Shown one piece after another: positions 1,109 to 39,137 of a DNA stretch of 64,000 nucleotides; the first letter of the stretch is position 1, and the number at the start of each line of letters is the position of its first letter. Under the pieces are notes generated by a model, which was given only the letters and a program-made list of their open reading frames with translations, ran no database searches and was not told the origin of the DNA. A program made the position numbers and the translations under genes. The stretch is from IMG/VR virus record IMGVR_UViG_3300029818_000001, positions 10,576 through 74,575 of that record; one strand, 5' to 3'. The DNA is from a virus. Its lineage: Duplodnaviria; Caudoviricetes.

Positions 1109-3614
1109 CAGGATAAGACTGCACCCCGGTCAGATGACCGTTTGGCAATCCCCCGCGCGGTTTCGCGTGGTGGTGGCAGGGCGCAGATGGGGCAAATGCT
1201 GCAAGGCCGGAACGCTCATAGCTATGAGCGATGGCAGCTATAAGCGCATTGAAGACGTGGCCTCTGGCGATCAGGTGTTAACCATAAGCGAGAAGACGTA
1301 TAGTCTTGAGTCGAAGGCCGTCAAGCATGTTCACGACAATGGCGTTAAGGATATCGTTCGCATCGTAACGAGGTCTGGCAAGAGACTCGAAGTAACGCCG
1401 AACCACCCCATTCTAGTCAACAATGTATGGACAGAGGCTAAGGACGTCAAGCTCGGTGATCTAGCGGCAATACCTAGAGCCACAGTGTTTGGCGTTGATG
1501 AAGTGCGCTCTTGCGAGATTGACTTCTTGGCTATTTGGCTTGCGGAAGGCGACAGTAGCGGATATACGAATCAAACGCCGGAAATCATTGATGTAATGAC
1601 GAAGGCGTGTGGCGAGATGGGTGTTGAATTTGTAGATTCGGCAACTGGCGATCGAAAAGCCGGTCTGTATTGGCGCTGGAGAGGCGTTAAGCCTAGAAGT
1701 AACGCATGTATAGACTTGTTGAAAAAACATGGTCTACGTCATAAAAATTCCAAGACAAAGTTCATTCCAGATTGCATATTTAGACTGCCAAAGAGTCAAC
1801 TTGCGCGTTTTCTAAATTTGTTCATTGCTTGCGATGGGTCTATAAATCGCCGGAGTAAAAATACATGGGCCGTTGAGATCGCTTTGGCAAATGAGAAAAT
1901 GACTGAGCAGATTGCTGACTTATTTTTGAAGTTTGGCATTAGAGGTCAAATTTCAAAGAAGGTTCATAAGGCGAAAAGTTCGGTCAGTGGCGACAACTTC
2001 ATCTCTTGGCGATTTATTGTGTCAGATAGTAAGTCACTAATTACTTTTTGCGATCAAATAGGCGCATTGAGTAAAGAAAGTAAAGTCGCTAGAGCGAAAT
2101 TGGCCGCGTCTGCATCAAGAGGTAGCTGTAATTCTTATTTGCCTATATCTCACGATGATTTTATCGAGCATCTAAGCTATAAGCCCGTGTTTAAAGGTAA
2201 GTATGGCGGCTACAACTGCGTTGTTTCGCGCGATTTACCAGAGGCTTTGAGAGAGAGATTGAATGGCTGGCGCAAGCAGACACCAAGTAGAGTTTCCGAG
2301 TATCGCTATTCATTCATCAGAGAGTTTGGCGATGGCTATTTTGATCCAATTGCAGATGGGGATTTTGCGTGGGATGAGATATCAGAGATCGAGTGTGTCG
2401 ATAAGGATCAAACCTATGATTTGACGGTTGATGGCAATCATAACTTTATCGCAAATGGTCTGGTTACGCATAATACCGCACTGTCGAAAGCCTTAATCAT
2501 CCGCTACGCCAAAATGCCGCGCCGCAAGGTCTGGTATGTTGCTCCAACCTACCGCATGGCGAAGCAGATCATGTGGCAAGATTTGCAGGACACGATACCT
2601 CCGAGATGGGTTCGTAAAATGAATGATACCTCGATGACCATTTGGCTCATCAATGGATCAGTCATTGAGCTTAAAGGCGCAGATAATCCCGATACTTTGC
2701 GCGGCGTAGGTTTGGATTTCGTGGTGTTGGACGAATATCAGGATATGTCCGAAGACACCTGGCATCGCGTCTTGCGTCCAACGATGGCAGATACGCGCGG
2801 TCATGCGCTTTTCATAGGTTCGCCAAAAAGTTATAACTTACTGCATGATGCTTATATTCTAGGTCAAGACCCGATTCGTGTCGCAAAGCGACAATGGCAG
2901 TCGTGGCAGTTTCCCACCATTACCAGTCCATTTATTCCCGTCGAAGAGATTGAGCAAGCTCGGCGCGATATGGATTCGAAATCGTTTGCTCAAGAGTTTT
3001 TGGCTTCGTTCGAAACAATGGCTGGTCGAGTTTATTACGCCTTCGATCGTCACACCCACGTCAAAAAGTGCGAATTCAACCCCAATTTGCCAATTTGGAT
3101 AGGTCAGGATTTTAATATCGACCCAATGTCTTCGATCATTATGCAGCCGCAGTTGGATGGTAGCATTTGGGTGGTGGATGAGATTGTCTTATTTGGCTCA
3201 AATACCGAAGAGAGCGTCGACGAGATCGAGCGAAGGTATTATCGCTATCGTAACAATGTCACCATATACCCGGACCCTGCCGGAACTCAGAGACAACACG
3301 CCAGAGGCGAAACCGATCTGGATATCTTCAGAGAGCGTGGCTTTCGACGCATTAAGCATCGCGCGCAACACCCTCGGGTGGCTGATCGCGTCAACTGCTT
3401 TAATAAGATGCTGAGATCGACAGACGGCACGATAAGACTGTATGTGGACCCAAGTTGCAAAGGCTTAATTGAGTCGCTGGAGCAGACGATTTATAAAAAA
3501 GGCTCCAGGGATATTGACAAATCCATTAGCGTCGATCATGCAACAGACGCCGCTGGCTACTGCCTAGAAGTGGAGTTTTCGCGCAAAGTCAAGATTTTGG
3601 GCGTCAGTATTTAA
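1098..3614 (+). CDS. terL: Terminase large subunit, intein-containing
   Basis: Walker A GRRWGK/T (split by the intein), YVAPT, Walker B VVLDE, nuclease motif GQDFNIDPMS, C-terminal DHATDAAGY. Confidence 0.95.
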   Translation: MSHNRIRLHPGQMTVWQSPARFRVVVAGRRWGKCCKAGTLIAMSDGSYKRIEDVASGDQVLTISEKTYSLESKAVKHVHDNGVKDIVRIVTRSGKRLEVTPNHPILVNNVWTEAKDVKLGDLAAIPRATVFGVDEVRSCEIDFLAIWLAEGDSSGYTNQTPEIIDVMTKACGEMGVEFVDSATGDRKAGLYWRWRGVKPRSNACIDLLKKHGLRHKNSKTKFIPDCIFRLPKSQLARFLNLFIACDGSINRRSKNTWAVEIALANEKMTEQIADLFLKFGIRGQISKKVHKAKSSVSGDNFISWRFIVSDSKSLITFCDQIGALSKESKVARAKLAASASRGSCNSYLPISHDDFIEHLSYKPVFKGKYGGYNCVVSRDLPEALRERLNGWRKQTPSRVSEYRYSFIREFGDGYFDPIADGDFAWDEISEIECVDKDQTYDLTVDGNHNFIANGLVTHNTALSKALIIRYAKMPRRKVWYVAPTYRMAKQIMWQDLQDTIPPRWVRKMNDTSMTIWLINGSVIELKGADNPDTLRGVGLDFVVLDEYQDMSEDTWHRVLRPTMADTRGHALFIGSPKSYNLLHDAYILGQDPIRVAKRQWQSWQFPTITSPFIPVEEIEQARRDMDSKSFAQEFLASFETMAGRVYYAFDRHTHVKKCEFNPNLPIWIGQDFNIDPMSSIIMQPQLDGSIWVVDEIVLFGSNTEESVDEIERRYYRYRNNVTIYPDPAGTQRQHARGETDLDIFRERGFRRIKHRAQHPRVADRVNCFNKMLRSTDGTIRLYVDPSCKGLIESLEQTIYKKGSRDIDKSISVDHATDAAGYCLEVEFSRKVKILGVSI
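1197..2474 (+). mobile_element. 426-aa intein with LAGLIDADG homing endonuclease in TerL
   Basis: Starts C(CKAGTLI), block B VTPNHP, LAGLIDADG-like FLAIWLAEGD and FLNLFIACDG, ends VTHN, +1 residue Thr. Confidence 0.95.
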
Positions 3615-11731: not shown

Positions 11732-14700
11732 ATGAGCTTAGGTAAAATATCGATAGAGTTAGAGCTGAAGGATGGCAAGTTTGAGGCGAGAGCGATAAAA
11801 GCTGGCGCCGCCATCCGAGGGATGGAGACGGATTTCGCTCAACTCGACAGACGGGTCAAGGGCGTTGAGAGAACTATTGGCGGTTTTTTACCTAAGATTC
11901 GCGATTTGTCGATTGTAACGGCGGCAACTCATTCGATCATACATACCATTAATGGGACGATGATCGCTTGGACAAGTAGCGTCATTAATGCGAATGCTGA
12001 AATTGAGCGCATGAGCGCGCTCCTTCAGGGCTTGAGTTCCAGTCTGACCACCGATGGGCACATTAAAGAGGTCGCTGACGATATGGGCTATCTATTCGAC
12101 ATGGCTCAGAAGGCGCCCTTCTCGATAAAAGAGTTATCCAATTCTTTTGTGAAGATGAAGTCGGCTGGTCTTGAGGATGTCGATAAGAAGCTGGTGTCGA
12201 TCACCAACGCCATCGCCCGGTTTGGCGGCAATGACGAAATTCTTCATAGAGCCACCATTGCGATTCAACAAATGGCGTCAAAAGGCGTCATATCGATGGA
12301 AGAGTTGCGTCAGCAGTTGGGCGAGGCCGTTCCTAACGCCATGAATCTCATGGCTGACGGTCTTGGCATGCCCATGCAAAAAATGGTCGATCTGATTTCT
12401 CAGGGTCGAGTTAAAGCGGTCCCCGCTATCGACGCCATGATGGAGGAAATGGATCGAACCATGAGCGGTGCCGCCGTGCGCATGATGGATACTTGGAACG
12501 GCATGATGTCGCAGTTCTCAACCAAGTGGGCGCTGTTGCAAAAGCAGATCGGTGACGCAGGCTTTTTCGGCGCAGCTAAAGAAGGTATGGGTGAGGTTTT
12601 AAACTTCATGGATAGCGATAGCGCGCTAATAGCCATGAAGGCGGTTGGCGACGCCATGCGCGATGTCATCGAGGCCACCAAGCAAGCTGTTGTCTTTTTT
12701 AAGGAATATGGCGATATCATTCTGACGGTCGCGAAGGCGCTTGGGACTTTCTATACCACAGCTAAGATCGCCAGCTTTGGCGTAGCTGTGCTTAATCCAA
12801 AAAATATTAAAGCTGCCGCTGACGCCTTTAAAGGGTGGGGCGCCGCGATCTTGGAAGCAAGTGCGGCATCTCGAACGGTGATTACGCCCACCAAGCACAT
12901 GATGGGGATCGTTTTAGAGACTGCGACCTCAGTTCAGAAGGTTACACTAGGCACTCGCGCTTGGGGCGCAGCATTGGCTGCATTGGGTGGGCACGTTGGT
13001 GTTGCTATTGCCGGATTGACAGCTCTTTATTACGGCTACGAGGCGCTTAAGCCGAAGATTAATGAGTCGCTAGAGGCTGTCAAGAAATACGGTCGAGAGT
13101 TGGACGATATGGGCAAAATAAAGCCCAAGTTGTTCGATAAGAAAAGTATTGATGAGGCTGCTAGTGGGTTGAGATTTCTGAGAGAGGAATCTGAGAGAAC
13201 CAAGGCTAAGCTCAAGCAGATGGAGGCTGATAATATTCGGCTCCATCCAATCGCAAGAGGTCCAAATTTCGATAAAGATTTGGGGGAAGCGCGTCAGAGA
13301 ATGGCCGATATAACCGAGGAGATTAAAAACGCTCAGGTCAATATCGAAGACAGTATGAGCGCTCTGATCGACAGGGGAGTAAGGCGTCGCATCTCTATTA
13401 TGGAGAATGAGCGAGATGAGTCGATCGATATTTTCGGTCAGACCTACAAGCAGAAGGTTGATTTCGCTCGCAAAGAGCGCGAAGCGATTATTTCGGCAGG
13501 TGGCGATATAGAAAAGGCTGAAGCCGAATTTAACGAAACCAAGAGGAAGGCGGCTGAGGAGCTATATGTTTCGCGCACCGATGCTCTGAAAAAATATGTG
13601 TCTCAGTATGAGGCGCAAATGACTCAATTGGTTAATAAGAGCCAAGATATCGCGGTTTTAAGTGATGTCGATGTCAAGATAAAAATCAACGAAGAGTCTC
13701 TGGCGAATTTACAGCAGGATTATCTTAATTTGAAGGTTGCTATTGAAAACGCAACCACTCCAGACAGAAAGAGAGAGCTGGAGAATCAATTAAAAGATAT
13801 TACCAAAGAGATAAAGGGCGCCTCATCAGCTCTCGATAATTTAAAAAGACTACGCGATGGAATTCTAGGGAATCCAATAAGCGAAGATGACATTATAGCG
13901 TATAACTCAATCATGAGATCGATATCCGACGTTAATGGTAAGTTGACGGACATGGATGGCATTCTTGACAAATTGAGAAGCGGCGAGCCTATAAATGTCG
14001 ATGCCATAATCGATACTAACGTCGGCAAGCAAGCTACGGAGGCTATGGCTCAAGCTCGAAACGCCTATATAAAGGAAAGCAAGGCTCTTCTCAACAAGAA
14101 GAGAGAGGTTGCTGTGCTCATGAAAGAGCCTGATGGCTCCGCCTCTGGAAAGCATGCCGCAAGCCTAGAGGCGCAATTTAAAATTCAAGAGGATGCGCAG
14201 AAGAAGCATAATGAGCTAACTCTTGAACAGCTACAAAAGGTTGACCTTGCGATAGCGGATAGTGTCGATAGCTGGGACGGCATGGGGAAAAAGCTTACAG
14301 AGATTTACGCGCTTAATCGCAGAATAGCCGAGGAAGAGTTTAGAGCGAGAAAGGCTCTAAACCCTAGAGAGGCTAAGGAAATTGATAATTCGGACGCGAT
14401 AAGAGAGAGTGAGCGCCTTCAATCGAAGCTGAACAGTTTAAGAGATGAGGCGGAAAGAGTCTCTGCCACGCCAAGTGTCGAAAACACAGATGCGCTGATG
14501 GCCATTAGAGAGAAGGTCAAGGAAACAGAAAAAGAACTTCAAATAAATGACCAGCTTATCGCCAAGATAGATGAGGCAAATGACGCCTATCGAAGAAGCG
14601 CCAATGTAAAAGCTGATGTGGCTGATAAGAAAAAGGCTGAAGCGGCAGCTGAAAGAGACCGCATTGGGAGAGAAAAGCTTTCCGAGCAAGAGATGAGACA

Positions 14701-16276
14701 GGCCGAGCGCCGCGAAAAATGGCTGGCCGATCAAAAAATTAGCATACTCGATGAAACAAAGCGTCTGACTCGTGAGAATCTTGAAGATGGCACGGAGGCA
14801 TATCGCCAGGCCACTGACGATCGCATCGAGCATTTCAGAAGACAGGCTATAGCGCAAGCGGAGCTTACCGGGCTTGGCAGGAAGGGCAAGGAGAAGGAGT
14901 TTGAGAGCTTCGTTGATCGCGCTACTGCCGAGCTTAAGGAGAAAGAAGCGAATCGCCGAATAGAGGAAGATAAGGCGCGACATAGCGAGATAATCAGAGG
15001 CTTGGATGACGAGATTTACAGCTCACGTCTGGAGCTAATAGAGGACTCTTTCGATCGGGAAAGACAACTATTGGATCGACGCTTTGACCTGATGCGGAGA
15101 GATGCGGAGAGAGAGGTTGAGCTTGGCGAAAACAAAATCGAGAGACTGAATAAGATCGAAGAGTTGCGCCGGCTCGAAGTTCAAAAGCTGGCGCAGTCGC
15201 ATCGCACCGAGTTTGGCAAAATGATGAGTGAAACTCAGCGATTCGAAGACCTGATGTCTGACGTAGGTATGTCGTTTGTTGACGGGTGGACGGACGGCTT
15301 TGCGAGATTGGCCTTCGCCAGTGAGGCGAGCTTTAAGGATATGGCGACTGCCATCATCAAGCAAATCGGCATTTTAATCATCAAGTATTACGCTCTCGCC
15401 GTTGCCAAAATGATTGCCGGTGCGCTTGGCGCAGGTGCGGGAGCAGCAGCGGGCGGCGGCACAGTTAATGGGATTGTGCCACAGGCGTCTTCGAATATCG
15501 GCAGCGGCTTTGCGAGCAATATGTTTCCCAATGCAGATGGCGGCGTAATGCCAATCAGAAAGTTCGCCAAGGGCGGCGTGATGAATGAGAAGACCGCCAA
15601 ATTGCTCTCTAAGGCGCCCGTCATGAGCAAGACTGATATGTTAGCTGGCGGCGTCAAAAACACACCACAGGTGGCCTTGTTTGCCGAGACGGATGTGCCA
15701 GAGGCTTTCATTCCGATGCCGAATGGCGCGATTCCTCTGTCGGTATCGCGCGGCAAAGATGGCAGCATTACCGGCTCGATTCCTTTGCCGAGCGGTCAGA
15801 TTTTACCTACCAAGATTGTCGAGGACAAAAGCGTTAAGGCTTTTGCAAAGGGCGGGGCCGTAGGGAGAGTTAGAGCGTCGAGCGTCGGTGGATTCGCCAG
15901 TGCGTCAACTATTGACTCTGGAGCCATCGTCAGTCAATTGATTCGCGTCGAAGAGGCCATTAATCGACTTGGCAATGTAGCGATGTCCTCAATCCCAAGC
16001 TCAATCGTTGGGAGTGATATGACGCAAACTCAAAACATTAATGGTTCCATCAATCCGTCAGGAATGTCTCAGTTGGCGGGGTCCGTCTCGAACATCGCAC
16101 CAGAGATAAACATTTCCGTGAATGTCGCCAGCGACGGCAGACGCGAAGAGGGCGACTCAGGTGGCAACGATCAAGCCGGCGCATGGACTAAGATGGCAAA
16201 GCAAATCGAAGGCGTAGTTGTCGGCGAGATCGTTAAGCAAAAGCGCCCTGGTGGATTGCTTTACCAAGGGCGCTAA
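11732..16276 (+). CDS. Tape measure protein
   Basis: 1514 aa, N-terminal tape-measure domain (APFSIKEL...SKGVISMEELRQQLGE), long helical region, follows the chaperones. Confidence 0.95.
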   Translation: MSLGKISIELELKDGKFEARAIKAGAAIRGMETDFAQLDRRVKGVERTIGGFLPKIRDLSIVTAATHSIIHTINGTMIAWTSSVINANAEIERMSALLQGLSSSLTTDGHIKEVADDMGYLFDMAQKAPFSIKELSNSFVKMKSAGLEDVDKKLVSITNAIARFGGNDEILHRATIAIQQMASKGVISMEELRQQLGEAVPNAMNLMADGLGMPMQKMVDLISQGRVKAVPAIDAMMEEMDRTMSGAAVRMMDTWNGMMSQFSTKWALLQKQIGDAGFFGAAKEGMGEVLNFMDSDSALIAMKAVGDAMRDVIEATKQAVVFFKEYGDIILTVAKALGTFYTTAKIASFGVAVLNPKNIKAAADAFKGWGAAILEASAASRTVITPTKHMMGIVLETATSVQKVTLGTRAWGAALAALGGHVGVAIAGLTALYYGYEALKPKINESLEAVKKYGRELDDMGKIKPKLFDKKSIDEAASGLRFLREESERTKAKLKQMEADNIRLHPIARGPNFDKDLGEARQRMADITEEIKNAQVNIEDSMSALIDRGVRRRISIMENERDESIDIFGQTYKQKVDFARKEREAIISAGGDIEKAEAEFNETKRKAAEELYVSRTDALKKYVSQYEAQMTQLVNKSQDIAVLSDVDVKIKINEESLANLQQDYLNLKVAIENATTPDRKRELENQLKDITKEIKGASSALDNLKRLRDGILGNPISEDDIIAYNSIMRSISDVNGKLTDMDGILDKLRSGEPINVDAIIDTNVGKQATEAMAQARNAYIKESKALLNKKREVAVLMKEPDGSASGKHAASLEAQFKIQEDAQKKHNELTLEQLQKVDLAIADSVDSWDGMGKKLTEIYALNRRIAEEEFRARKALNPREAKEIDNSDAIRESERLQSKLNSLRDEAERVSATPSVENTDALMAIREKVKETEKELQINDQLIAKIDEANDAYRRSANVKADVADKKKAEAAAERDRIGREKLSEQEMRQAERREKWLADQKISILDETKRLTRENLEDGTEAYRQATDDRIEHFRRQAIAQAELTGLGRKGKEKEFESFVDRATAELKEKEANRRIEEDKARHSEIIRGLDDEIYSSRLELIEDSFDRERQLLDRRFDLMRRDAEREVELGENKIERLNKIEELRRLEVQKLAQSHRTEFGKMMSETQRFEDLMSDVGMSFVDGWTDGFARLAFASEASFKDMATAIIKQIGILIIKYYALAVAKMIAGALGAGAGAAAGGGTVNGIVPQASSNIGSGFASNMFPNADGGVMPIRKFAKGGVMNEKTAKLLSKAPVMSKTDMLAGGVKNTPQVALFAETDVPEAFIPMPNGAIPLSVSRGKDGSITGSIPLPSGQILPTKIVEDKSVKAFAKGGAVGRVRASSVGGFASASTIDSGAIVSQLIRVEEAINRLGNVAMSSIPSSIVGSDMTQTQNINGSINPSGMSQLAGSVSNIAPEINISVNVASDGRREEGDSGGNDQAGAWTKMAKQIEGVVVGEIVKQKRPGGLLYQGR

Positions 16277-16317: not shown

Positions 16318-16650
16318 ATGGCTAAACAAGTTTTTACATGGCTCCCGGATATTGATTGGGACCTGGATCATGAGCCAAGAGTTAGCTCAGTCGAGTTTGG
16401 CGAATACGAGCAACGTATTCGTCATGGCATTAACAGCGATCCGCTCAAGTTCGACTTGACCTTTACCAGAAGCAAGTCGGAGATCGACGCGATTAATCAA
16501 TTTCTCAAGACTCATGGCGGCGCCGACAGCTTTCAGTGGACCACGCCACAGTCTTACGTTGGGCTATTCGTGGCGAGAAAGTGGCGAATTAGACCGCATG
16601 AAGAGTCTTTGCGCAGACTATCGGTGGTATTTGAGGAGGTGTATAGCTAG
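16318..16650 (+). CDS. Distal tail protein, lambda gpM-like
   Basis: FTWLPD, VEFGEYEQR, FLKTHGGADSFQWT motifs. Confidence 0.85.
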   Translation: MAKQVFTWLPDIDWDLDHEPRVSSVEFGEYEQRIRHGINSDPLKFDLTFTRSKSEIDAINQFLKTHGGADSFQWTTPQSYVGLFVARKWRIRPHEESLRRLSVVFEEVYS

Positions 16651-17360
16651 TGTCAACCTCTGAGATTATTAAGGATATTCAGTCGCTATCGATGGACGCC
16701 GTTGTCGAGCTGTTTACACTCGACTTTACCAACATTCAGGCGGGCGGAATATTGAGATTTCACGCTGGAACGAACGAGTTGAGACAAAACGTCATTTGGC
16801 AGGGTAATGAATATTACGCAATGCCAATCGAGGCGGAAGGCTTTGAGAAACTAACTCAGGGAACTCTGCCTAGGCCAAAGATTCGTGTCGCCAATACGGA
16901 TGGCGCACTTAGCGCTCAAGTTGCTGCGGCAGACGATCTTGTTGGCTGCAAGGTTATAAGAAAGCGCACCTTGGTTAAATATCTGGATGCCGTCAACTTC
17001 ACTGGCGGTGTGAATCCATTAGCAAACCCCAATCAGCACTTTCCTGATGACGTTTGGTATGTCGAGCAAAAGCTTTCTGAGAATCGGCTGTCTATCGAGT
17101 GGGAGCTTAGCTCTGTGCTTGATTTACAAGGTGTGATGTTGCCAAGAAGACAAATCATTATGAATTCGTGCTCATGGGAATACAAGGGTGAAAATTGCGG
17201 ATACTCAGGCTCAGATTATTTCAATGCTCAAGACCTTCCTACGAACATGAGTAATGACGTGTGCGGGAAGAGATTGAACTCCTGCAAGATTCGGTCAAGC
17301 GGCTTTTCTGGCGGCGTCTTGCCGTTCGGAGGCTTCCCTGGAGCTAAGAGATATGATTAA
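16650..17360 (+). CDS. Tail tip protein, lambda gpL-like
   Basis: VELFTLD, LPRRQI, Cys pattern CSWEY..CGY..CGKRLNSC, FGGFPG. Confidence 0.9.
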   Translation: MSTSEIIKDIQSLSMDAVVELFTLDFTNIQAGGILRFHAGTNELRQNVIWQGNEYYAMPIEAEGFEKLTQGTLPRPKIRVANTDGALSAQVAAADDLVGCKVIRKRTLVKYLDAVNFTGGVNPLANPNQHFPDDVWYVEQKLSENRLSIEWELSSVLDLQGVMLPRRQIIMNSCSWEYKGENCGYSGSDYFNAQDLPTNMSNDVCGKRLNSCKIRSSGFSGGVLPFGGFPGAKRYD

Positions 17361-18105
17361 CAGATTAAATAAGCGGATTGTGTCGCTTGTTCGTGCGGAA
17401 GCCAAAAGACGCTATCCAGAAGAGGCATGTGGGCTAGTTATAAGATCGAATAGAGGCTTCGTGGGCGTCTCTTGCAAGAATGTAGCTGACGAGCCTTGTG
17501 GCAATTTTGTTATTTCCTCCGCAGAGTTTACCAGTATCGCTGACAGAGGCGAGATAGTCGCTGTCTGGCACACTCATATCGACCGCCCCCCAACACCATC
17601 CGTTATCGACATTTTTGGCTGCAATGCCACCGACGTTAATTGGTTCATTGTCGCGATTCAAAAAACCGATGATGATTTCGAGATAAGCGAGCCTTATCTG
17701 CTAAAGCCTAATCAAGATACGGGCTACATTGGCAGACCTTACGCCTACGGCTTCTATGACTGCTTCACAATAGCTGAAAGCTATTATCGCAAGGAGTTTG
17801 GCATTGTCTTTTCTCATAAGCCCTCTGGCTACCCAGAGATCGAGGATTGGTATAAGAAAGGCATGAATCTTTTGGAGGATAACTTCGAGAAGAATGGCTT
17901 TGTTCGTCTGATCGACACCAAGCCGATCGAGGGCGATATCTTATTGATTCAAATGGGTAGCGACGTGCCAAACCATATTGCCATCTATGTCGGAGATAAC
18001 CGCATTTTACACCACTGTGCGGGCAAATTGTCTAGCGTTGACTTCTACGGTGGGTATTGGAAGAAACATACGACGCATCACCTGCGTCACGAAAATAGGA
18101 TTTGA
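17353..18105 (+). CDS. Tail assembly protein, lambda gpK-like (JAB/MPN + NlpC/P60)
   Basis: EACG and HTH..PS..D JAB motif; DCF...NHIAIY NlpC/P60 motif. Confidence 0.9.
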   Translation: MINRLNKRIVSLVRAEAKRRYPEEACGLVIRSNRGFVGVSCKNVADEPCGNFVISSAEFTSIADRGEIVAVWHTHIDRPPTPSVIDIFGCNATDVNWFIVAIQKTDDDFEISEPYLLKPNQDTGYIGRPYAYGFYDCFTIAESYYRKEFGIVFSHKPSGYPEIEDWYKKGMNLLEDNFEKNGFVRLIDTKPIEGDILLIQMGSDVPNHIAIYVGDNRILHHCAGKLSSVDFYGGYWKKHTTHHLRHENRI

Positions 18106-18108
18106 TGA

Positions 18109-18723
18109 ATGCTGACTAAGATAATTCTAGATGGACCGATGGGTAAGAGATTTGGCCGCGAGTGGAATCTTGCCGTAAATTCGCCAGCAGATGCGTTGAG
18201 AATGATAGATGCCAATAAGTCAGGCGTCTTTGTGTGGATTCGCGACAATTTGGACAAATACGAGGGTTATCAGATCATTTGTAAACATGAGGATGGCTCC
18301 GAAGAGTATCTAAATAACGACACGTTCGAGTTGGAGAGAAAGCTGAAGGAGATTCGCTTTGTTCCGACCGTAGTGGGGGCCGGTGGCAACAATAAAGGCA
18401 TGGGCGCTTTGCAGATAGTTTTAGGCATTGTCATCATTATCGCGGCCATTTGGACCGGCGGCATGGCTGCCGCCGCCATTCCTGGCGTATTGGCGGGTGT
18501 CAGCATGATTGCCAGCGGTATCGTTACCATGCTAACCACGATGCCCAAGCCGGGCGATATGTCGGATACGGAGCGTAGAGATGGAACGTCTTACTATTTC
18601 GACGGGCCGACCAATACATCTATGGAAGGTGTGCCGGTGCCCTTAATAATAGGCCGGTGTCTAGTTGGATCTCACCCAATTTATGTCAATTTAACAGTGG
18701 ATGATAAGGTAAAAGGATCATGA
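18109..18723 (+). CDS. Tail assembly protein, lambda gpI-like (ubiquitin-like fold + hydrophobic segment)
   Basis: N-terminal domain ending FVPTVVGAGG, hydrophobic stretch, GVPVPLIIG. Confidence 0.9.
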   Translation: MLTKIILDGPMGKRFGREWNLAVNSPADALRMIDANKSGVFVWIRDNLDKYEGYQIICKHEDGSEEYLNNDTFELERKLKEIRFVPTVVGAGGNNKGMGALQIVLGIVIIIAAIWTGGMAAAAIPGVLAGVSMIASGIVTMLTTMPKPGDMSDTERRDGTSYYFDGPTNTSMEGVPVPLIIGRCLVGSHPIYVNLTVDDKVKGS

Positions 18724-21700
18724 GTGTAAGTCAGGTTATCGGGTCGGGCGGCGGCTGCTTTAGAAAAGGCACTCAGATTCAGCTAGAGCACGGTAAGACT
18801 GTCGCTATCGATAGTCTAAAAGAAGGCGATGAAGTCCTGGCGTTTGACGAGGCTGGAGACATTCATGTCGCAAAAGTTATCAAGCTACATATCCACGAAG
18901 AGCCGCAGCCTATTCTCAGAGTCAAATTTTGGCGGGGTGAGATATTCGTTACGCCAAATCATTGGGTTTTAAATCAATTCTGCTCTTTCGTGGAAATGAG
19001 CACATTGTCTATCGATGACGCGCTCGTTGACAGCATGGGGCATTTGAGACCCATCATAGAGATGGAGCATGTGGGTTTTGAAGAAGTCTACAACTTAACG
19101 GTTGAGCCGCATCACACCTTTATTGCAGATGGTGTTCGAGTTCACAACGGCGGTCATAGAGAGCGATATCCCGAAGTTAAGGGCGCTGGCGGAGGCTCCA
19201 AAAGCACAGGTGGTCGCGTCGCTGTCGAAGCAAGAGACACATTACGCTCTCACGCGCAGGTCTCTCTGATCGATCTGCTCGGAGAGGGCGAGATTGGCGG
19301 TCTAGTAGACGGAGCAAAGTCAATATTCTTGGACGATACGCCTCTGATGAGCGCATCGGGCGGATACAATTTCACCAACGTGGAGTGGGATTTTAGGCCG
19401 GGAACGCCAAATCAATCAATCATTCCAAACTTTTCAGACGTTGGAACTCCGGTTGTTGCGAGTCATGCGCTGACGACATCGGCGCCCTATACATTTACCG
19501 TTAGCAATCCGAATGTAGATAGAGTTCGAATCGTTATGAATGTTTTGTCGCTAATGCGGCAAGACCCAGCGACAGGCGATATAAATGGAGCGCAGGTTAA
19601 ATATCAATTCGCCATGTCTGTCGATGGCGGGCCAATGTCAGTCATCGGTGACGATATAACCATTAAAGGTAAGACTCGATCGAAGTATCAGCGCGCTCAT
19701 CTTATTGATCTGCCCAAGCCTGGCTCGACATGGACGATACAGGTCAGAAGACTGACAGCCGACTCGTCATCTTCGGCGCTCTCTAACGCCACTCAAGTAG
19801 ATAGCTATGTAGAGATTACCGATGTAAAGCTGAATTATCCAAACTCAGCTTTGGTTTCGATGGCATTCGACCCCGAGTCATTCTCAAGAGTCCCAAGACG
19901 GTCGTATCTCGTCGATGGCGCTTATATTCAGGTTCCATCCAACTATGATCCTGTCACCAGAACTTACGCTGGAATTTGGAATGGCACTTTCAAGGTTGCG
20001 ATATCTAACAATCCGGCGTGGTGGCTTTATGAGTTGTTGGTCAATAAGCGAGTGGGGCTTGGCGACTACATCAGCTCAAATCAGGTCAACAAGGCAAAGC
20101 TTTATCTTGTCGGCAAGTATTGCGACGAGCTTGTGGATAATGGCTACGGCAGTCTTGAGCCGCGCTTCACCATCAATACGTCCATTCAAACCCGCGCAGA
20201 AGCCTATAAGCTGATTTCCGACATTGCGTCGGTGTTCAGAGGGATGGCATTTTGGGGTGGGGAGATGGTTGACTTCACCAACGATGCGCCAAGCCCTGGC
20301 GTTGGTATGGTGTTCTCTCAAGCCAACGTCGTTGACGGTCTATTTAATTATGTCGGGTCGTCAAGAAAAGACAGACATAGCGTTGTCTTGGTCACATGGA
20401 ACGATCCAGCCTCTAACTATAAGCAAAGAGTCGCCTATGTAGAAGATGCGGAGCTGATTCAAAAGATTGGCTATAAAAAGCTGGAGACTATCGCGTTCGG
20501 TTGCACAAGCGAGGCACAAGCTATCCGCGCGGGAAGATGGATTCTTTATACCGAGCGATACGAGACCAATTTGATTACCTTCAAGGTCGGCATGGATGCC
20601 GCCTTAGTAATGCCTGGTGAAGTCATCAGAATTCACGAGCCGACAAGAGCCGGGAAGCGCATGAGTGGTCGCATTAAAAGCGCAACCACAACATCAGTAA
20701 CGCTCGATGCTCCTGTTACTCTCGATACCTCAAATGCCACCATCAGCGTTAGATTACCCGATGGAACATTCGTAGATAGACAAGTCAATCAGGGAATAGG
20801 GAGTCATTCGGTATTAACTTGGACCAGCGCCTTATCTGTGGTTCCCAGTAAGATGGCTATGTTTGTGGTGTCGGAGACGAATCTCGTGCCGATGCTGGCC
20901 CGAGTTATCAACGTTAAGCCAGGCGAGGGCGATCAAAAACACACTTACGAAATTGCATGCGTAGAACATAATCCTACCAAATACAATGCGGTCGAGAGCA
21001 ACCTTCTTATCGAGCAGCCCCAAACCTCGATCGTGGACCCATTTAATGAAAACCCGACCAATATATCGATAGACGAGTCGACCTATTTTATCGCACCAGG
21101 CGTTATTGGCTCTAAGCTTCACATTTCATGGGAAGGTAAGGCTAAGTATTTTGAAGTCAGTTACCGCATCACTGTTGACGATGAGACTTCGAACTGGCAC
21201 ATAGAGACAATCACGGTCCCCTCTTACGAGATTCTAGGTCTGCGAGCCGGTTCGGTTGTGGACATCAGAGTTATTGCCGTTAGCAGCAAGGATGTCAGAT
21301 CACTACCGCTTGACGCAACCTACTCGATACTGGGTAAGACAGCCGCGCCTTCGCCGCCAACTAATCTGACCGCACAGCCGCAAGGCTCAAGGTCTGTTTT
21401 GTTACGATGGACGAATCCCGCCGACATAGATTTCGATCATGTCGAAATCTATATGAGTGTGCCAGCAGAGCCGGAGAATCCAGAAGATCCATTGAGTGTT
21501 CAGGCGGCGATAGATGCAGCCGACAATGGTCTATTGGCAGAGCGCATCGCTAGAACCTCTGGAGATACTTTTCTAGTTACCGGATTGCCGCCTCAAGCCG
21601 TAACTCGCTTTTTTTGGGCGAAGGCGGTTGACACATCGGGTAATAAGTCGCAATTTAACGCAATTCCAGGCACGTCGGCAAGCACCGAAGCAGAAGCCGA

Positions 21701-24700
21701 CTACATGGTTGCTCTTCTTGAGAATAAAATCGGCTCATCAACATTAAGTCAAGAGTTGGCCGAGAGAATCGACGGCGCAGGCGATTTGGGAATCGTGGTC
21801 CAAGCGCAGCAAGAAGTTATCGATGGCGTTCTTGGTAAATACACAGTCAAGATAGATCACAATGGCTACGTTTCCGGCTACGGTCTGATGAGTGAGGAGA
21901 ATGACGGCGCCATCATTTCTGAGTTCGCCGTCAGAGCGGATAGATTCTCAATAGGTAGCCCTTCTGGGTCAACTTCAGAACTTGCAACGCCATTTATGGT
22001 GTTAAGCACACCTACGGTAATTGACGGAACTACGTTTGATCCTGGCGTTTATATGAATAGCGCCATGATTACCAAACTCACAGCTTCGCAAATAGATACA
22101 AGAGGTCTGACGGTTAGAGGCGACGATGGCAGAATTATTCTAAGCACCGACGTTCCGCTCGATTACGAGACCGACGTAACCAATAAGCCGGAAATGATTA
22201 GCTTTCACGACACCTTTCAGTTTGGTCTGTCAAGCTCGTGGTTCGAAAGCCCAGACTCGATTAAAAATGGCGTATTCGGTGTAGAGGATAGCATCGGAGC
22301 GCTGTCTGGTGGGCGCGTTCTGAGAGTCGGCAACAACTCTGGCAACAACATGGTTTGGTTCGTGAATAGTCAAAAGTTCGCCTTTGACCATGGCGCACTT
22401 TATCAAATAAAGTGCCGAGTAAGGCGGCTCGCCGGAACGGGAAGTGTGTATGTTGGCTTGGTTGGCGTGGGCGCCGACGGCGTTACGCTCGTCAACAAAA
22501 ATGGCGCAAACGGCTTGGCCGATCAGCACTTTGTCGTAGCGTCTGGCGCCAATCCTGGCAATTCATGGGTTGAATATGTCGGCTACGTCAAAGGTGTCGC
22601 TCTTCAAGGAACCAGCGTGGCTGCGCCGTCGATAGAGTCACCAGGCGTTTTACATCAAAACGTGAGATTCGTTAGACCTGTGCTGATCGCGAATTATAGT
22701 AATCAGTCAGGCATTACAGAGTTTGACGTATTCTCGATGACGCAAATTACGGCAGACCTTAGCACTGGCGCATCGGTTAGATACATTTACAGCGAGTTCG
22801 CGACTCCACCTGCGCTACCACCTAGCGATCAGACAACTGGTTGGGATATTACGTCTAGCGAGTTCGCGATATGGGCGTCGCTTCAGATAAACACCACATC
22901 TCCGTCGGGCGTCATCACGGAATATGGACCCTGGGGGCAGCCCGTTAGAATCAAAGGAAACACGGGGCCAAGTGGTGCATCGGGTCAGGCGGTCGATATT
23001 ATTTTCAGACGGTCAGCTGGTCAGCCGGCTACGCCAAACTCAAGTCTAAATCTACCAAATCTTTGGCATACCGATGTTAATAGCGTTCCAAATGGGCCAA
23101 ACCCTTTGTGGTCGTGCGTTGGCAAAAGGTCTGACCCAGGGGCGAATTGGATTTGGGAGACTCCGGTTAAGATTAGCGGCGAGACGGTTGTCGAACTTCT
23201 GACATTTAGAAGATTCGCTTCTCAGCCCACTACGCCGACAGGGGGAACCTATAACGCAGCAACCAACGTATTCACGCCGCCTACCAATTGGTCTTCGTCG
23301 ATTCCATCTGGCACCGACCCTGTGTGGGTTTCGGTTGGTCTGGTGACAATTGGCGGCTCTGAGACGATAGGCACTCCTACTTGGTCTACAGCAGCCAAAG
23401 CGTTTCAAGATGGTCAAAGCGGGTTAAATGGAAGTAGAACGGCGATACTGGATATGTATCGATGGTCTGCTTCGCCTCCGACTTCATTTCCTTCTGGAAG
23501 TTCTACATACACCTGGGCAACCGCGCAATTTACAGCTCCGTCATCACCTAACGGCTGGTCTCTGACGCCGCCCAGTCCAGTTAGCGGTCATAATCTATAC
23601 ATTTGCCGCCAACTGTATTCTGATAATAATACAAGCAGCCAAACGACTATTGCTTGGACTGCCAATACAGCTCAAGCAATTGGCAAAGCGGGGTCGGATG
23701 GACAGCCTGGGCAGGATGCACAGTATGTTACGGTAAGCTCCGAGCAAGCCTTTAAGTATACAGGTGGCTCATCGACGCCAGTAAATACAACTATCATTAT
23801 GACCGCAACACTCTTCGGGGGCTTGAGTGGTTATCAATGGCAATATTGGAATGGGTCTTCATGGGCGAATTTTACCAGCAATACAGGTAGCACATATTCA
23901 CTCACTCACAACAATGCTGCGTGGGGGACAAGTCAAGCGCTTAGAGTCCGATGTTTATCTGGTGGTAAGTTTGACGAAACAACGATTGTCAAATTATATG
24001 ATGGGGAGTCTGGGGCACAAGGCTCAAATGCAAGAGTTGGCTTCTTAACCAACGAAAGTCACTCTGTTGCGACAAATAGCTTAGGCGGTGGGTATGCGTT
24101 GGGCTCGGCTGGTGGCTTTTTCAAAGTGTTTGACGGGACGAGCGATGTAAGTGGCTCGTCAGCATATACCGTATCTGGCGGCAGTGTCTCTGGCGGCAAT
24201 CACGTCAGAACGTTAAATGGTTTGACGATGACTATTAATCGAACCACGGGTCAGTATTCTCTATCTGGCTCGTCATGGTCATCGGACTCTCTTTCATTTG
24301 ACTTAGTTGCTATATATGGCGGCACCTCTATCGCCAAAACCTATACCATAGTCAAGGCAAAAGCTGGAGCAACCGGCGTCAGCATATCAGGCGTTGTGAA
24401 TAACTATCTGGCTTCATCAAGTAGCTCTGGCGTGACCACAGCGACGCCAGGCTGGACCACAACTGTTCAAACCATAACCGCTGTCAATAAGTTTTTGTGG
24501 AATTACGAAACCATAACTTACAGTAACGGCGCAACGACCGTGACAACGCCAACCATTATAGGCGTTCATGGTAGTGAAGGTAGAGGCATAACCAGCGTTT
24601 TGGAAGAGTATGCTGTCGGCAGCTCAAGTAGCACAGCGCCAACATCTTGGTCTACCACCTTACAGACTACAACCACAACAAATCGCTTCCTTTGGAACCG

Positions 24701-26486
24701 CGAAACCATAACCTACACTGACAGCACGACAAGTAGCGCTCAAAGAGTTATAGGGACTCATGGAGCTACGGGCACAAACGGCACAAACGGCGCAAACGGC
24801 ACAAGAACGGCCTTCTTAGAGCTTTACAAGTGGGCGGCGACTAAGCCGGCAAGCTCATTTCCTTCTGGAAGCTCCACTTACACCTGGGCAACCGGTGCAT
24901 TCACATTACCTTCTTCTCATAATGGTTGGACGCTTCTGCCGGGCGACGCTGTTCCTGGGCAAACACTCTGGGCAGTTGGGCAAGTGTATTCTGACAGCAA
25001 TACGACAGCTCAAAGTAACGTTACATGGTCGATAACTTCTTCAAAGGTTCACGCTGTGGGGGCCGCGGGAACCAATGGCACAAATGGTCAGGGTCAAGTT
25101 AAGTCCTTTGCGTTTAGGCGTCAGACATCGGCTCCAAGCACACCTACGGGCGGAACATTTAGTTCGCCTAATCCGACAACATCCGGCTGGTCCGACGGCA
25201 TTCCATCGGGGTCAAACCCTATTTGGGTAACTACGCGAATATTTACATCGGATGGGTTGTCGCCAGCGCAAGGCGCTTGGTCCACGCCTGTATTGTTTGC
25301 GCTGAATGGCGAAAGCGCTAACGGCGGCTCGGTAAGATATAAATTCAGCAGTAACGCCACTGCACCGGCGACAGGCACCGGCAGCAGCACATATCCGGGA
25401 TCGAACTGGACGATAAATGCATCGTCCAGCACTATATGGATGACGCAGCAAGTTAACGCAGTTAATCCCTCTGGCACGATCGTATCCCATGGAAATTGGT
25501 CTACGCCGGTCAAGATTAAGGGGGAAGATGGGCCGTCAGTGACGATTAACCCATCAAGAGCGGCGACATTTACCTCGACAGATGGCGTGTTGAACTCAGG
25601 GCAGACCTCGATCGTTTTTACAGCAGCAGTTTTTAATATAGCAAGTCCTTCATACGCTTGGTCGATTACGCGACAAGGCGGCTCAGGAACAACCCCAACA
25701 GCCTCAAGCAGCTCAAGCTACACAGTGACGGCGGCAAATATGGGAACCTCCAAGTCGGTAATTGTTACCTGCACGGTTAACGGCACCTACGTTGCCAAAA
25801 CGACCATAGCAACGCTAGATAGCTCCACAGCGGAGCCTAATGCGACAGCGGGTGCGACATTTACACCAGGTCAGCCAGGGACTATAGTGGGAACCATACC
25901 GAATCAGGCAGCATTTGATCTATATTTAGGCTCGGTAAAGATTAAAAGGTCGCACATAGATAATTTGACTGTGGATACTGCCGATATTGTGGACGGCGCA
26001 GTTAAGAATGCGAAGATAGATAATGCCGCCATCAACACGCTAAAAATCGCAGGCAATGCCGTCAGTTCGACGTTCTTCGTCTCTACTGACGACGCCTTTA
26101 ATCTGAATAGCAAATGGACAACCATAGCCTCAATAACGGTTGCGGTATCCGGCCTTGGCACGGGCGAAACAGCAAATGTTGATCTGCTGGGTATGGCTAA
26201 AACCCCATCGGCAATTCACACTCAGCTCGTCGGCAACGCAAATCAGGTTCTTCGCAGTGCGGCAAGGTTTCAAATGCGGATTCTCAGAGGCAGCACACTT
26301 GTCGCTCAAACCAGCTCTGACATATTGCGATCCACAGAAAACTCAGTAGGTGGCTCAGACAATGTTGCAAATGGCACATACACCTATCATCTTCAGATGA
26401 TAAGACACTGGACTCATCCAGAGAATTTTTATGGAGTCTATCGGGCGCGCGACGCTCACTTTACATTAAGGTTGACAAAGCGATGA
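18720..26486 (+). CDS. Tail tip/central fibre protein, lambda gpJ-like, with N-terminal Hint domain
   Basis: 2588 aa; IDLLGEGEIGG, YPNSAL, NPAW, EPRF, FN3-like PSPPTNL, KYTVKID...EFAVRADRFSI; long repetitive distal region. Confidence 0.93.
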   Translation: MSVSQVIGSGGGCFRKGTQIQLEHGKTVAIDSLKEGDEVLAFDEAGDIHVAKVIKLHIHEEPQPILRVKFWRGEIFVTPNHWVLNQFCSFVEMSTLSIDDALVDSMGHLRPIIEMEHVGFEEVYNLTVEPHHTFIADGVRVHNGGHRERYPEVKGAGGGSKSTGGRVAVEARDTLRSHAQVSLIDLLGEGEIGGLVDGAKSIFLDDTPLMSASGGYNFTNVEWDFRPGTPNQSIIPNFSDVGTPVVASHALTTSAPYTFTVSNPNVDRVRIVMNVLSLMRQDPATGDINGAQVKYQFAMSVDGGPMSVIGDDITIKGKTRSKYQRAHLIDLPKPGSTWTIQVRRLTADSSSSALSNATQVDSYVEITDVKLNYPNSALVSMAFDPESFSRVPRRSYLVDGAYIQVPSNYDPVTRTYAGIWNGTFKVAISNNPAWWLYELLVNKRVGLGDYISSNQVNKAKLYLVGKYCDELVDNGYGSLEPRFTINTSIQTRAEAYKLISDIASVFRGMAFWGGEMVDFTNDAPSPGVGMVFSQANVVDGLFNYVGSSRKDRHSVVLVTWNDPASNYKQRVAYVEDAELIQKIGYKKLETIAFGCTSEAQAIRAGRWILYTERYETNLITFKVGMDAALVMPGEVIRIHEPTRAGKRMSGRIKSATTTSVTLDAPVTLDTSNATISVRLPDGTFVDRQVNQGIGSHSVLTWTSALSVVPSKMAMFVVSETNLVPMLARVINVKPGEGDQKHTYEIACVEHNPTKYNAVESNLLIEQPQTSIVDPFNENPTNISIDESTYFIAPGVIGSKLHISWEGKAKYFEVSYRITVDDETSNWHIETITVPSYEILGLRAGSVVDIRVIAVSSKDVRSLPLDATYSILGKTAAPSPPTNLTAQPQGSRSVLLRWTNPADIDFDHVEIYMSVPAEPENPEDPLSVQAAIDAADNGLLAERIARTSGDTFLVTGLPPQAVTRFFWAKAVDTSGNKSQFNAIPGTSASTEAEADYMVALLENKIGSSTLSQELAERIDGAGDLGIVVQAQQEVIDGVLGKYTVKIDHNGYVSGYGLMSEENDGAIISEFAVRADRFSIGSPSGSTSELATPFMVLSTPTVIDGTTFDPGVYMNSAMITKLTASQIDTRGLTVRGDDGRIILSTDVPLDYETDVTNKPEMISFHDTFQFGLSSSWFESPDSIKNGVFGVEDSIGALSGGRVLRVGNNSGNNMVWFVNSQKFAFDHGALYQIKCRVRRLAGTGSVYVGLVGVGADGVTLVNKNGANGLADQHFVVASGANPGNSWVEYVGYVKGVALQGTSVAAPSIESPGVLHQNVRFVRPVLIANYSNQSGITEFDVFSMTQITADLSTGASVRYIYSEFATPPALPPSDQTTGWDITSSEFAIWASLQINTTSPSGVITEYGPWGQPVRIKGNTGPSGASGQAVDIIFRRSAGQPATPNSSLNLPNLWHTDVNSVPNGPNPLWSCVGKRSDPGANWIWETPVKISGETVVELLTFRRFASQPTTPTGGTYNAATNVFTPPTNWSSSIPSGTDPVWVSVGLVTIGGSETIGTPTWSTAAKAFQDGQSGLNGSRTAILDMYRWSASPPTSFPSGSSTYTWATAQFTAPSSPNGWSLTPPSPVSGHNLYICRQLYSDNNTSSQTTIAWTANTAQAIGKAGSDGQPGQDAQYVTVSSEQAFKYTGGSSTPVNTTIIMTATLFGGLSGYQWQYWNGSSWANFTSNTGSTYSLTHNNAAWGTSQALRVRCLSGGKFDETTIVKLYDGESGAQGSNARVGFLTNESHSVATNSLGGGYALGSAGGFFKVFDGTSDVSGSSAYTVSGGSVSGGNHVRTLNGLTMTINRTTGQYSLSGSSWSSDSLSFDLVAIYGGTSIAKTYTIVKAKAGATGVSISGVVNNYLASSSSSGVTTATPGWTTTVQTITAVNKFLWNYETITYSNGATTVTTPTIIGVHGSEGRGITSVLEEYAVGSSSSTAPTSWSTTLQTTTTTNRFLWNRETITYTDSTTSSAQRVIGTHGATGTNGTNGANGTRTAFLELYKWAATKPASSFPSGSSTYTWATGAFTLPSSHNGWTLLPGDAVPGQTLWAVGQVYSDSNTTAQSNVTWSITSSKVHAVGAAGTNGTNGQGQVKSFAFRRQTSAPSTPTGGTFSSPNPTTSGWSDGIPSGSNPIWVTTRIFTSDGLSPAQGAWSTPVLFALNGESANGGSVRYKFSSNATAPATGTGSSTYPGSNWTINASSSTIWMTQQVNAVNPSGTIVSHGNWSTPVKIKGEDGPSVTINPSRAATFTSTDGVLNSGQTSIVFTAAVFNIASPSYAWSITRQGGSGTTPTASSSSSYTVTAANMGTSKSVIVTCTVNGTYVAKTTIATLDSSTAEPNATAGATFTPGQPGTIVGTIPNQAAFDLYLGSVKIKRSHIDNLTVDTADIVDGAVKNAKIDNAAINTLKIAGNAVSSTFFVSTDDAFNLNSKWTTIASITVAVSGLGTGETANVDLLGMAKTPSAIHTQLVGNANQVLRSAARFQMRILRGSTLVAQTSSDILRSTENSVGGSDNVANGTYTYHLQMIRHWTHPENFYGVYRARDAHFTLRLTKR
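18756..19148 (+). other. 131-aa Hint (intein-like) domain without endonuclease, +1 residue Gly
   Basis: CFRKGTQI start, block B VTPNHW, block F VYNLTVE..HTFIADG, ends VHN followed by GG. Confidence 0.9.
23484..24894 (+). repeat. 40-bp near-identical in-frame direct repeat within J
   Basis: 23484-23523 vs 24855-24894, 37/40 identical, offset 1371 bp (457 codons). Confidence 0.8.
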
Positions 26487-39050: not shown

Positions 39051-39137
39051 TGGTGCCGAGGAGAGGACTTGAACCTCCACGCCCTTGCGAGCACTAGCAC
39101 CTGAAGCTAGCGTGTCTACCAATTTCACCACCTCGGC
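39051..39137 (-). tRNA. tRNA-Leu(CAG), complete with CCA
   Basis: Reverse complement GCCGAGGTGGTGAAATTGGTAGACACG CTAGC TTCAGGT GCTAG ... GTTCAAGTC ... CTCGGCACCA; 87 nt, long variable arm. Confidence 0.95.

Follow-up and report, generated by a model that had tools for sequence, protein, structure and literature searches.

A putative self-removing, intein-like Hint cassette in the poly-Gly N-terminal tail of a phage tail tip protein

The window analyzed here, a stretch of 64,000 nucleotides covering positions 10,576 to 74,575 of IMG/VR virus record IMGVR_UViG_3300029818_000001 (Caudoviricetes; 74.6 kb, estimated to be ~68% complete), encodes a lambda-like phage tail tip protein, J, with a Hint domain close to its N-terminus. 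Judging from the residues conserved across its homologs, this Hint domain is probably an optional, in-frame, endonuclease-free and intein-like cassette that removes itself, in the style of a type A bacterial intein-like (BIL) domain, from the poly-Gly N-terminal tail of J, a reading that we hold with some reservation. All coordinates are those of the window, and the parts of the J gene on which the argument turns are as follows.

18720-26486, + strand: tail tip protein J (TipJ, central tail fiber), 2588 amino acids (open reading frame, translation, Pfam, homology)
18720-18755, + strand: N-extein or leader MSVSQVIGSGGG, residues 1-12, ending in V-I-G-S-G-G-G, with Gly12 at position -1
18756-19148, + strand: mini-Hint domain of 131 amino acids, Cys13 to Asn143 (translation, Pfam, PDB match, AlphaFold2 [AF2] model, Foldseek, TIGR01443)
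19149-19205, + strand: downstream flank GGHRERYPEVKGAGGGSKS, residues 144-162, with Gly144 at position +1
19149-19175, + strand: post-Hint linker G144-G145-H-R-E-R-Y-P-E ("HR-type"), with Gly at +1 and +2
19176-19205, + strand: second J N-terminal motif, V153-K-G-A-G-G-G, then S-K-S, after which conserved J sequence restarts

The Hint-bearing protein is, by its sequence, the TipJ/lambda gpJ tail tip protein, because it matches Pfam families FNIII-A_GpJ (residues 248-368), Phage-tail_3 (492-652), and Phage_Tail_Tip (1039-1120) and its gene closes an L-K-I-J gene order. From residue ~166 on, it is ~45% identical to J of SSU5-like and Ralstonia phages. The ATG at 18720, which overlaps the stop codon of the gpI-like gene (ATGA) and has an AGGA a few bases upstream, is well supported as the J start codon. 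No in-frame ATG, GTG, or TTG lies just downstream of the Hint, and therefore J cannot be made Hint-free; an internal start past the domain was rejected on this ground.

Translation of 18720-26486 reproduces exactly the arrangement that an earlier note on this DNA had read from the letters: a leader, a 131-residue Hint domain with Cys1, T-P-N-H, and V-H-N, and Gly at +1. Block B is T78-P79-N80-H81, block F is V-Y-N-L-T-V...H-T-F, and block G is V141-H142-N143. On a 197-residue N-terminal piece, the Pfam families Hint, Vint, and PT-HINT score above their cut-offs (PT-HINT, PF07591, with 28.9 bits versus a cut-off of 27.7) and Intein_splicing scores below its own; TIGR01443, the intein C-terminal region, is above its cut-off on the J Hint. 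The top PDB sequence match is 2lwy, a bacterial intein-like domain of C. thermocellum (E value of 9e-7). An AF2 model of the J N-terminus built on 53 homologs has a predicted local distance difference test (pLDDT) score of >93 across residues 10-145, and it predicts the linker (residues 146-189) to be disordered, with pLDDT of <50 over residues 146-171. Foldseek places BIL2 of Tetrahymena (6y75/6tmm, E value of 3e-11) at the top, followed by 2lwy (template modeling [TM] score of 0.87, root mean square deviation of 1.6 Å) and then the DnaB mini-inteins. There were 66 PDB matches with an E value of ≤0.001, the best having TM scores of 0.81-0.89 on the target; the ~45 listed out of these 66 comprise BILs, inteins, and Hedgehog autoprocessing domains, all of them HINT folds. 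The predicted model confirms a horseshoe-like, all-beta HINT fold for the J N-terminal domain, and the kinship with BILs suspected in the earlier note is borne out by the closest solved relatives of the Hint, which are BIL domains. Block F reads V-Y-N-F-K-V...H-T-Y in 2lwy and T-Y-D-L-T-V...H-N-F in the intein of this phage's terminase large subunit (TerL). The 131 residues have no LAGLIDADG or HNH match in Pfam, in agreement with the earlier claim that an endonuclease is absent. Other assignments were rejected: a class 3 intein, since Cys1 is present and there is neither a W-C-T motif nor a conserved block F Cys; a Hedgehog-type Hog domain, since His-Asn is present and is followed directly by the Gly-rich linker and J; and use of a nearby downstream nucleophile, since the first Ser/Thr lies ~17 residues away and is not conserved.

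The domain belongs to a large family. Searches with J residues 1-200 or 1-160 returned 84 clusters of long and 186 clusters of shorter proteins, so that the same Hint occurs in at least 270 protein clusters, and all complete members are J proteins. In IMG/VR, 441 stretches match the Hint; among species genomes, about 10 of 185,579 have a Hint locus, most of them metagenome-assembled genomes and no well-studied host among them. Records of Herbaspirillum huttiense, Castellaniella, and Oxalobacter point to prophages that encode a Hint-bearing J. Residues were counted over the 202 complete N-termini of Hint-bearing homologs. All 202 have Cys1, the block B His, and the terminal Asn; the -1 residue is Gly in 199, and the +2 residue is Gly in every one. 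The survey of +1 residues that the earlier note had proposed gave Gly in 176, Ala in 26, and Cys, Ser, or Thr in none. Canonical splicing is excluded on these sequences because there is no +1 nucleophile, and what had been claimed from the single Gly of this phage thus extends to all 202 homologs, where +1 is Gly or Ala. The catalytic residues are conserved down to ~30% sequence identity, no decayed copy was found among the ~200 full N-termini, and the N-extein varies from 6 to 37 amino acids. Mean pairwise identity is 60% for the Hint versus 46% for the J hub, with a Spearman correlation of 0.73 between the two; the few discordant pairs (e.g., Hint 88% and core 43% identical) point to recombination and to mosaic J genes. 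Two motifs outside the classical blocks, W82-V-L-N-Q86 and H108-L-R-P111, are invariant and family specific in alignment A1 (18720-19379), and neither these nor the G-G-H-R-x-x-Y-P linker has a counterpart in 2lwy.

In their source annotations, the Hint-bearing proteins are labeled just "TipJ family," "DUF1983 domain-containing," or "phage tail protein." A tblastn search of the GenBank phage collection with the Hint region gave 8 weak matches, to helicase inteins and hypothetical proteins and none in J; a blastn search of the same collection with 8 kb around the Hint site gave just 120- to 130-nt matches to T1-like tail genes, and no cultured relative was found there. [quoted passage not shown]

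Where the Hint sits within J is informative. A search with the J hub retrieved Hint-bearing and Hint-less J proteins at similar identity, and the Hint-less proteins start with M-x(3-30)-[IV]-x-G-[AS]-G-G-G-G-(K/S)-G-G-G...R-x-A-x-E-x-x-D-[ST]-L. Because Hint-less homologs begin with the same motif, the leader of Hint-bearing J is, by this comparison, the native start of the protein, with the Hint inserted in a poly-Gly tract that belongs to J itself; the leader is thus no new peptide. Downstream of the Hint, three arrangements occur. The HR-type form, G-G-[HYF]-R-x-x-[YF]-P-x-x followed by a second [IV]-x-G-[AS]-G-G-G, accounts for 146 of 202 N-termini, this phage included; a [GA]-G-[RL]-G-... 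form, also followed by the second motif, accounts for 40, its A-G-L-G subset making up the +1 Ala class; and in the remaining linker-free form (16/202), H-N is followed directly by G-G-G-G-K, and therefore ligation would restore the native tract exactly. Linker type is clade specific on the Hint tree. The second motif copy aligns with the N-terminus of Hint-less J, and at some loci the two copies have rare residues in common (I-S-G-S-K-G-G/I-Q-G-S-K-G-G and I-V-G-S-T-G-G/V-A-G-A-T-G-G). The two copies in J are more alike within than between proteins, significantly so versus shuffles, a weak result given uncontrolled kinship and an imperfect leader register.

The distribution of the cassette is patchy. 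A FastTree phylogeny of the J hub, in which 51 of the 174 rows have the Hint, requires 25 changes in Hint presence, with at least 22 changes forced by well-supported branches; these counts are approximate, J being mosaic. Among 1763 records of the GenBank phage collection with J homologs, none has the Hint. Close relatives also differ: Hint-less P0288 and Hint-bearing P0069 have the same leader, MTRYVMGEGGGG (M-T-R-Y-V-M-G-E-G-G-G-G), and P0064 is a second Hint-bearing sister with a later called start (M-G-E-G-G-G). The DNA of P0069 and P0064 is set apart from that of P0288 by one in-frame indel whose ends lie in Gly-codon direct repeats, GGYG..GGCGGYGG, and P0220 and P0033 form a second sister pair differing in the Hint. 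From this comparison, the cassette is optional and J works without it, because the tree is patchy, Hint-less sisters exist, and 1763 records are without the Hint. The earlier view that the Hint is domesticated rather than selfish fits poorly with an optional domain that has undergone at least 22 gains or losses, that is absent from sisters with the same leader, and that is missing from all these records. By sequence, its distribution is an intein-like population pattern, yet one that is endonuclease free; recombination between the repeats on either side could plausibly delete the cassette, and homologous exchange of the J 5' end could plausibly bring it in.

In the published scheme for type A BILs, an N-terminal thioester forms, Asn cyclizes, and the freed amino group attacks the thioester, with cleavage products usually dominating (PMC4031507, PMC7664689). 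By analogy, in the folded J Hint, Cys13 would turn the Gly12-Cys13 peptide bond into a thioester, and Asn143 would cyclize, with the chain cut before Gly144. The route suggested in the earlier note, a Cys1 thioester plus Asn cyclization releasing a Gly-Gly N-terminus, would thus be that of published type A BILs (PMC4031507). Without a +1 side-chain nucleophile, the Gly144 alpha-amine would then attack the Gly12 thioester, an aminolysis splicing that would give ...GSGGG-GGHRE..., or the thioester would be hydrolyzed to leave a J beginning at Gly144. The earlier statement that such domains mainly self-cleave stands for its cleavage part and was incomplete in that type A BILs also ligate by aminolysis, a route that the Gly/Gly junction and the linker-free variants fit. 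Most members, like this phage, have the second motif copy after the Hint, and both outcomes would give them a Hint-less-like J N-terminus; in the linker-free variants, the native N-terminus would be restored by ligation only, and these variants are predicted to depend on it. The proposed cross-linking of the tail tip is disfavored: the thioester would carry the short leader only, not J, and therefore could not tie J to another part.

We favor real use of the N-terminal step because Cys1 and the block B His are invariant and would be needless for C-terminal cleavage alone unless the steps are coupled, and because both junction residues are Gly, which in general peptide chemistry should give the least hindered thioester and amine. 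Cleavage may be the main outcome in most members because the second motif makes the C-cleaved J native-like; by contrast, efficient ligation is predicted for the linker-free variants. Our commitment, drawn from conserved residues, is to self-excision with either end product, ligated or cleaved; what matters to the phage, we think, is the removal of a 15-kDa domain. The cassette would be an optional passenger, neutral or mildly regulatory, staying active because an unexcised Hint would spoil J and gained or lost via recombination at the flanking Gly-codon repeats.

Several points weigh against a self-removing passenger. Self-processing of this family is predicted from conserved residues, and the adjacent K protease could in principle excise the region in place of the Hint. 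The whole domain is better conserved than the J hub, which, together with the W82-Q86 and H108-P111 motifs, exceeds what a passive passenger needs and may reflect an added function, and the conserved HR..YP linker is not accounted for. The tree cannot separate gain from loss, and its event count is approximate for a gene as mosaic as J.

Weighing the alternatives requires the neighboring genes, which form a lambda-like tail module in the order tape measure protein, M, L, K, I, J, with K combining JAB and NlpC/P60 domains.

11732-16276: tape measure protein, tail module
16318-16650: gpM-like protein, tail module
16650-17360: gpL-like protein, tail module
17353-18105, + strand: gpK-like protein with JAB/JAMM metalloprotease and NlpC/P60 domains (Pfam Prok-JAB and NLPC_P60; translation)
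18109-18723, + strand: gpI-like tail assembly/plug protein with an N-terminal ubiquitin-like domain, between K and J (translation; homologs in PF06805, Lambda_tail_I)
18370-18387: motif [IV]-x-G-[AS]-G-G in gpI, residues 88-93
18735-18752: the same motif in J, residues 6-11
19176-19193: the same motif in J, residues 153-158

The ubiquitin-like domain of the gpI-like protein ends in ...I-R-F-V-P-T-V-V-G-A-G-G (residues 82-93), and its tail consensus across loci, [EQ]-I-[RK]-[FI]-[VI]-P-V-[VIL]-x-G-[AS]-G, is similar both to the motif at the J N-terminus and to the HR-type linker taken together with its motif, R-[YF]-P-V-[VI]-x-G-[AS]-G-G. The motif reads V-V-G-A-G-G in gpI and V-I-G-S-G-G and V-K-G-A-G-G in J, and it is present in Hint-less J proteins as well. 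K may use it as a common docking or cleavage site. In the gpK-like protein, the JAMM residues (E24, H73-x-H75-x7-S83-x2-D86) and the NlpC/P60 triad (C137, H208, and H221) are invariant in 43 homologs. The JAB domain of K has been predicted to cut gpI after the C-terminal Gly of its ubiquitin-like domain (Iyer et al., PMC1779556), and in the lambda tail tip gpI is resolved only from residue 101 onward (PMC11101478). Within single genomes, inspection by eye showed no A/S covariation of the gpI tail with the J motifs, and a complex prediction pairing the gpK-like protein (alignment A3) with J residues 144-205 (A1) scored 0.01 and was not used either way.

These neighbors could be given the work that we assign to the Hint. 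If the gpK-like JAB, or its NlpC/P60 domain, cut after [IV]-x-G-[AS]-G-G, the second J site would allow leader, Hint, and linker to be removed together, regardless of any activity of the Hint. The motif does occur three times, once in gpI and twice in J, the gpI tail looks like the HR-type linker plus motif, the JAMM site is intact, a gpK-like protein with such domains is present at 58 of 60 Hint-bearing loci, and cleavage of gpI after its C-terminal Gly is the predicted activity of this JAB (PMC1779556). The Hint catalytic residues could then decay, yet they are kept in 202 of 202, and the linker-free variants are without the second site; with a short, Gly-rich motif whose resemblance may amount to a strand plus a flexible linker, and with cleavage of J by K never reported, we regard removal by K as rather improbable. 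Conjugation offers a different use of the same neighbors. In BIL2 of Tetrahymena, an isopeptide bond is formed between the C-terminus of an upstream ubiquitin-like domain and substrate lysines (PMC8616854), and by analogy the J Hint might hand the leader Gly thioester on to a lysine, or to some amino terminus that is not Gly144, leaving an isopeptide-linked tag; candidate acceptors are the conserved Lys in the J G-G-G-K-G-G-G tract or another tail protein. BIL2 is the best structural match, the leader, with its terminal G-G-G, looks like the tail of the gpI ubiquitin-like domain, the Lys is conserved within a flexible Gly tract, and the tail module has a ubiquitin-like domain and a deubiquitinase-like JAB with no E1 or E2 enzyme (PMC1779556). 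The J N-extein, however, is a peptide of 6 to 37 amino acids with no ubiquitin-like domain and no evident use as a tag, Hint-less relatives need no such step, and conjugation by the J Hint is argued from analogy; its chance appears slim to us. The same slight credence applies to a wider version, in which the tail module would run an E1-free ubiquitin-like conjugation with the gpI ubiquitin-like domain and the gpK JAB and NlpC peptidases as partners or erasers sharing the tail motif. Such conjugation could serve as assembly control, or as a decoy against the host systems that conjugate ubiquitin-like proteins to the central tail fiber (bioRxiv 10.1101/2023.09.04.556158).

The remaining alternatives leave the chemistry to the Hint or deny it altogether. 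As a domesticated maturation switch, the Hint would be kept because, as a bulky cap at the N-terminus of all three J chains, it usefully delays the next assembly step until its own excision, acting as a self-timed or a redox- or zinc-gated checkpoint. [quoted passage not shown] A switch would suit a whole Hint more constrained than the J hub, the invariant motifs outside the catalytic blocks, the conserved linker classes, and a Hint family found in J only; without an endonuclease, persistence cannot rest on homing, and the relative BIL2 is zinc activated (PMC8616854). We nonetheless consider it unlikely: close J relatives and all searched cultured lambda-like phages are without the Hint, the many independent gains or losses mean that the Hint is dispensable, and no co-varying change was found in the neighboring genes. 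Some Hint domains are inactive. A catalytically silent, structural Hint that stays on virion J might be argued from such cases, processing by members of this family being deduced from sequence, but full conservation of the residues at both junctions down to ~30% identity is hard to explain without catalysis, and Hint-less relatives show that the Hint is not part of the J architecture, which makes this the sort of outcome we would hardly expect.

The self-removing cassette that we prefer has close counterparts among known systems. Like the J Hint, type A BILs (2lwy; Amitai 2003, Dassa 2004, and Aranko 2013, via PMC4031507) are HINT folds of ~130 to 140 amino acids with no endonuclease, with an N-terminal Cys, a block B His, a C-terminal His-Asn, no Cys, Ser, or Thr at +1, and a block F with Asn and H-T-[FY]. 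In J these features are Cys13, T78-P-N-H81, H142-N143, and Gly144, and the superposition on 2lwy (TM score of 0.87) comes with a sequence identity of only ~29%. The chemistry expected by analogy is thioester formation plus Asn cyclization, with ligation by aminolysis only. Classical BILs differ in lying in variable regions of nonconserved, often secreted bacterial proteins with varied flanks, a location not found for the J Hint, which is always found at a single position within a conserved stretch of a structural protein of phages, with near-invariant flanks, a motif that is usually duplicated, and Hint-less alleles. Class 1 mini-inteins (Ssp and Npu DnaB, gp41-1), as well as the TerL and RNR inteins of this phage, have the same fold and blocks A, B, F, and G; they resemble the J Hint in being in frame at a conserved host site, in having plus and minus alleles, and in requiring removal for a native host protein. 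Unlike them, the J Hint has a +1 nucleophile in 0 of 202 homologs, so no branched intermediate is possible, and J is a fast-evolving tail protein, not an enzyme of replication or packaging. The TerL and RNR inteins also end in T-H-N/T and contain LAGLIDADG endonucleases, and the J Hint has neither. BIL2 of Tetrahymena thermophila BUBL1 (6y75, 6tmm) has an N-extein that ends in Gly, and an amine resolves the thioester (PMC8616854); its N-extein is a whole ubiquitin-like domain, in contrast to the 12-residue peptide of J, and identity is 23%. PT-HINT (PF07591) can be likened by sequence to the J Hint as an autoproteolytic Hint releasing a neighboring module, but it precedes the C-terminal toxin modules of bacterial proteins that are secreted, whereas the J Hint is N-terminal in a virion protein and a toxin domain is absent.

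What appears to be new is the combination of BIL-type chemistry with intein-type population behavior in a new host protein. New points include the insertion in a native tract, three linker classes, an indel between sister alleles, the conservation of Hint versus hub, and the motif link to the gpI tail. To our knowledge, type A BILs are known mostly from a few bacterial proteins in artificial contexts, with cleavage dominant. The J Hint family bears on the natural use of ligation "without a nucleophilic side chain": this large family of at least 270 clusters exists in nature under strong constraint (Gly at -1 and +2, Gly or Ala at +1), and it contains built-in natural controls in the linker-free variants that would need ligation, the duplicated-motif variants that would need none, and the Hint-less sisters. 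Tail assembly begins with J, which host ubiquitin-like defense is known to target. If the proposed self-excision is true, J would be the first phage tail tip protein for which a self-processing Hint is reported, in a cassette that goes unannotated while gene callers name the proteins just "TipJ family" or "phage tail protein."

The window contains other elements of interest. Distal J (22900-25000, + strand) has long internal repeats, for example, two ~70-residue modules with ...F-P-S-G-S-S-T-Y-T-W-A-T...N-G-W-[ST]-L... in common, which suggests a modular, duplicated fiber region. Together with J, two further genes give this phage three Hint elements of two mechanistic kinds. TerL (1098-3614, + strand) has a canonical LAGLIDADG intein of ~425 amino acids in Walker A, G-R-R-W-G-K/C-C-K-A-G-T...T-H-N/T, with Thr at +1, and the RNR large subunit (61100-64000, + strand, running past the window end) has a canonical LAGLIDADG intein in an active-site motif, N-L-C/...T-H-N/T-E-I, also with Thr at +1. 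A DNA polymerase III alpha-like protein (45052-48381, + strand; PHP, polymerase, and finger regions) has a C-terminal domain of the uracil-DNA glycosylase superfamily (residues 961-1093), a CobT-like VWA protein is encoded at 41350-43263 (+ strand), and a tRNA-Leu(CAG) gene (39051-39137, - strand) lies near integrase-like open reading frames.

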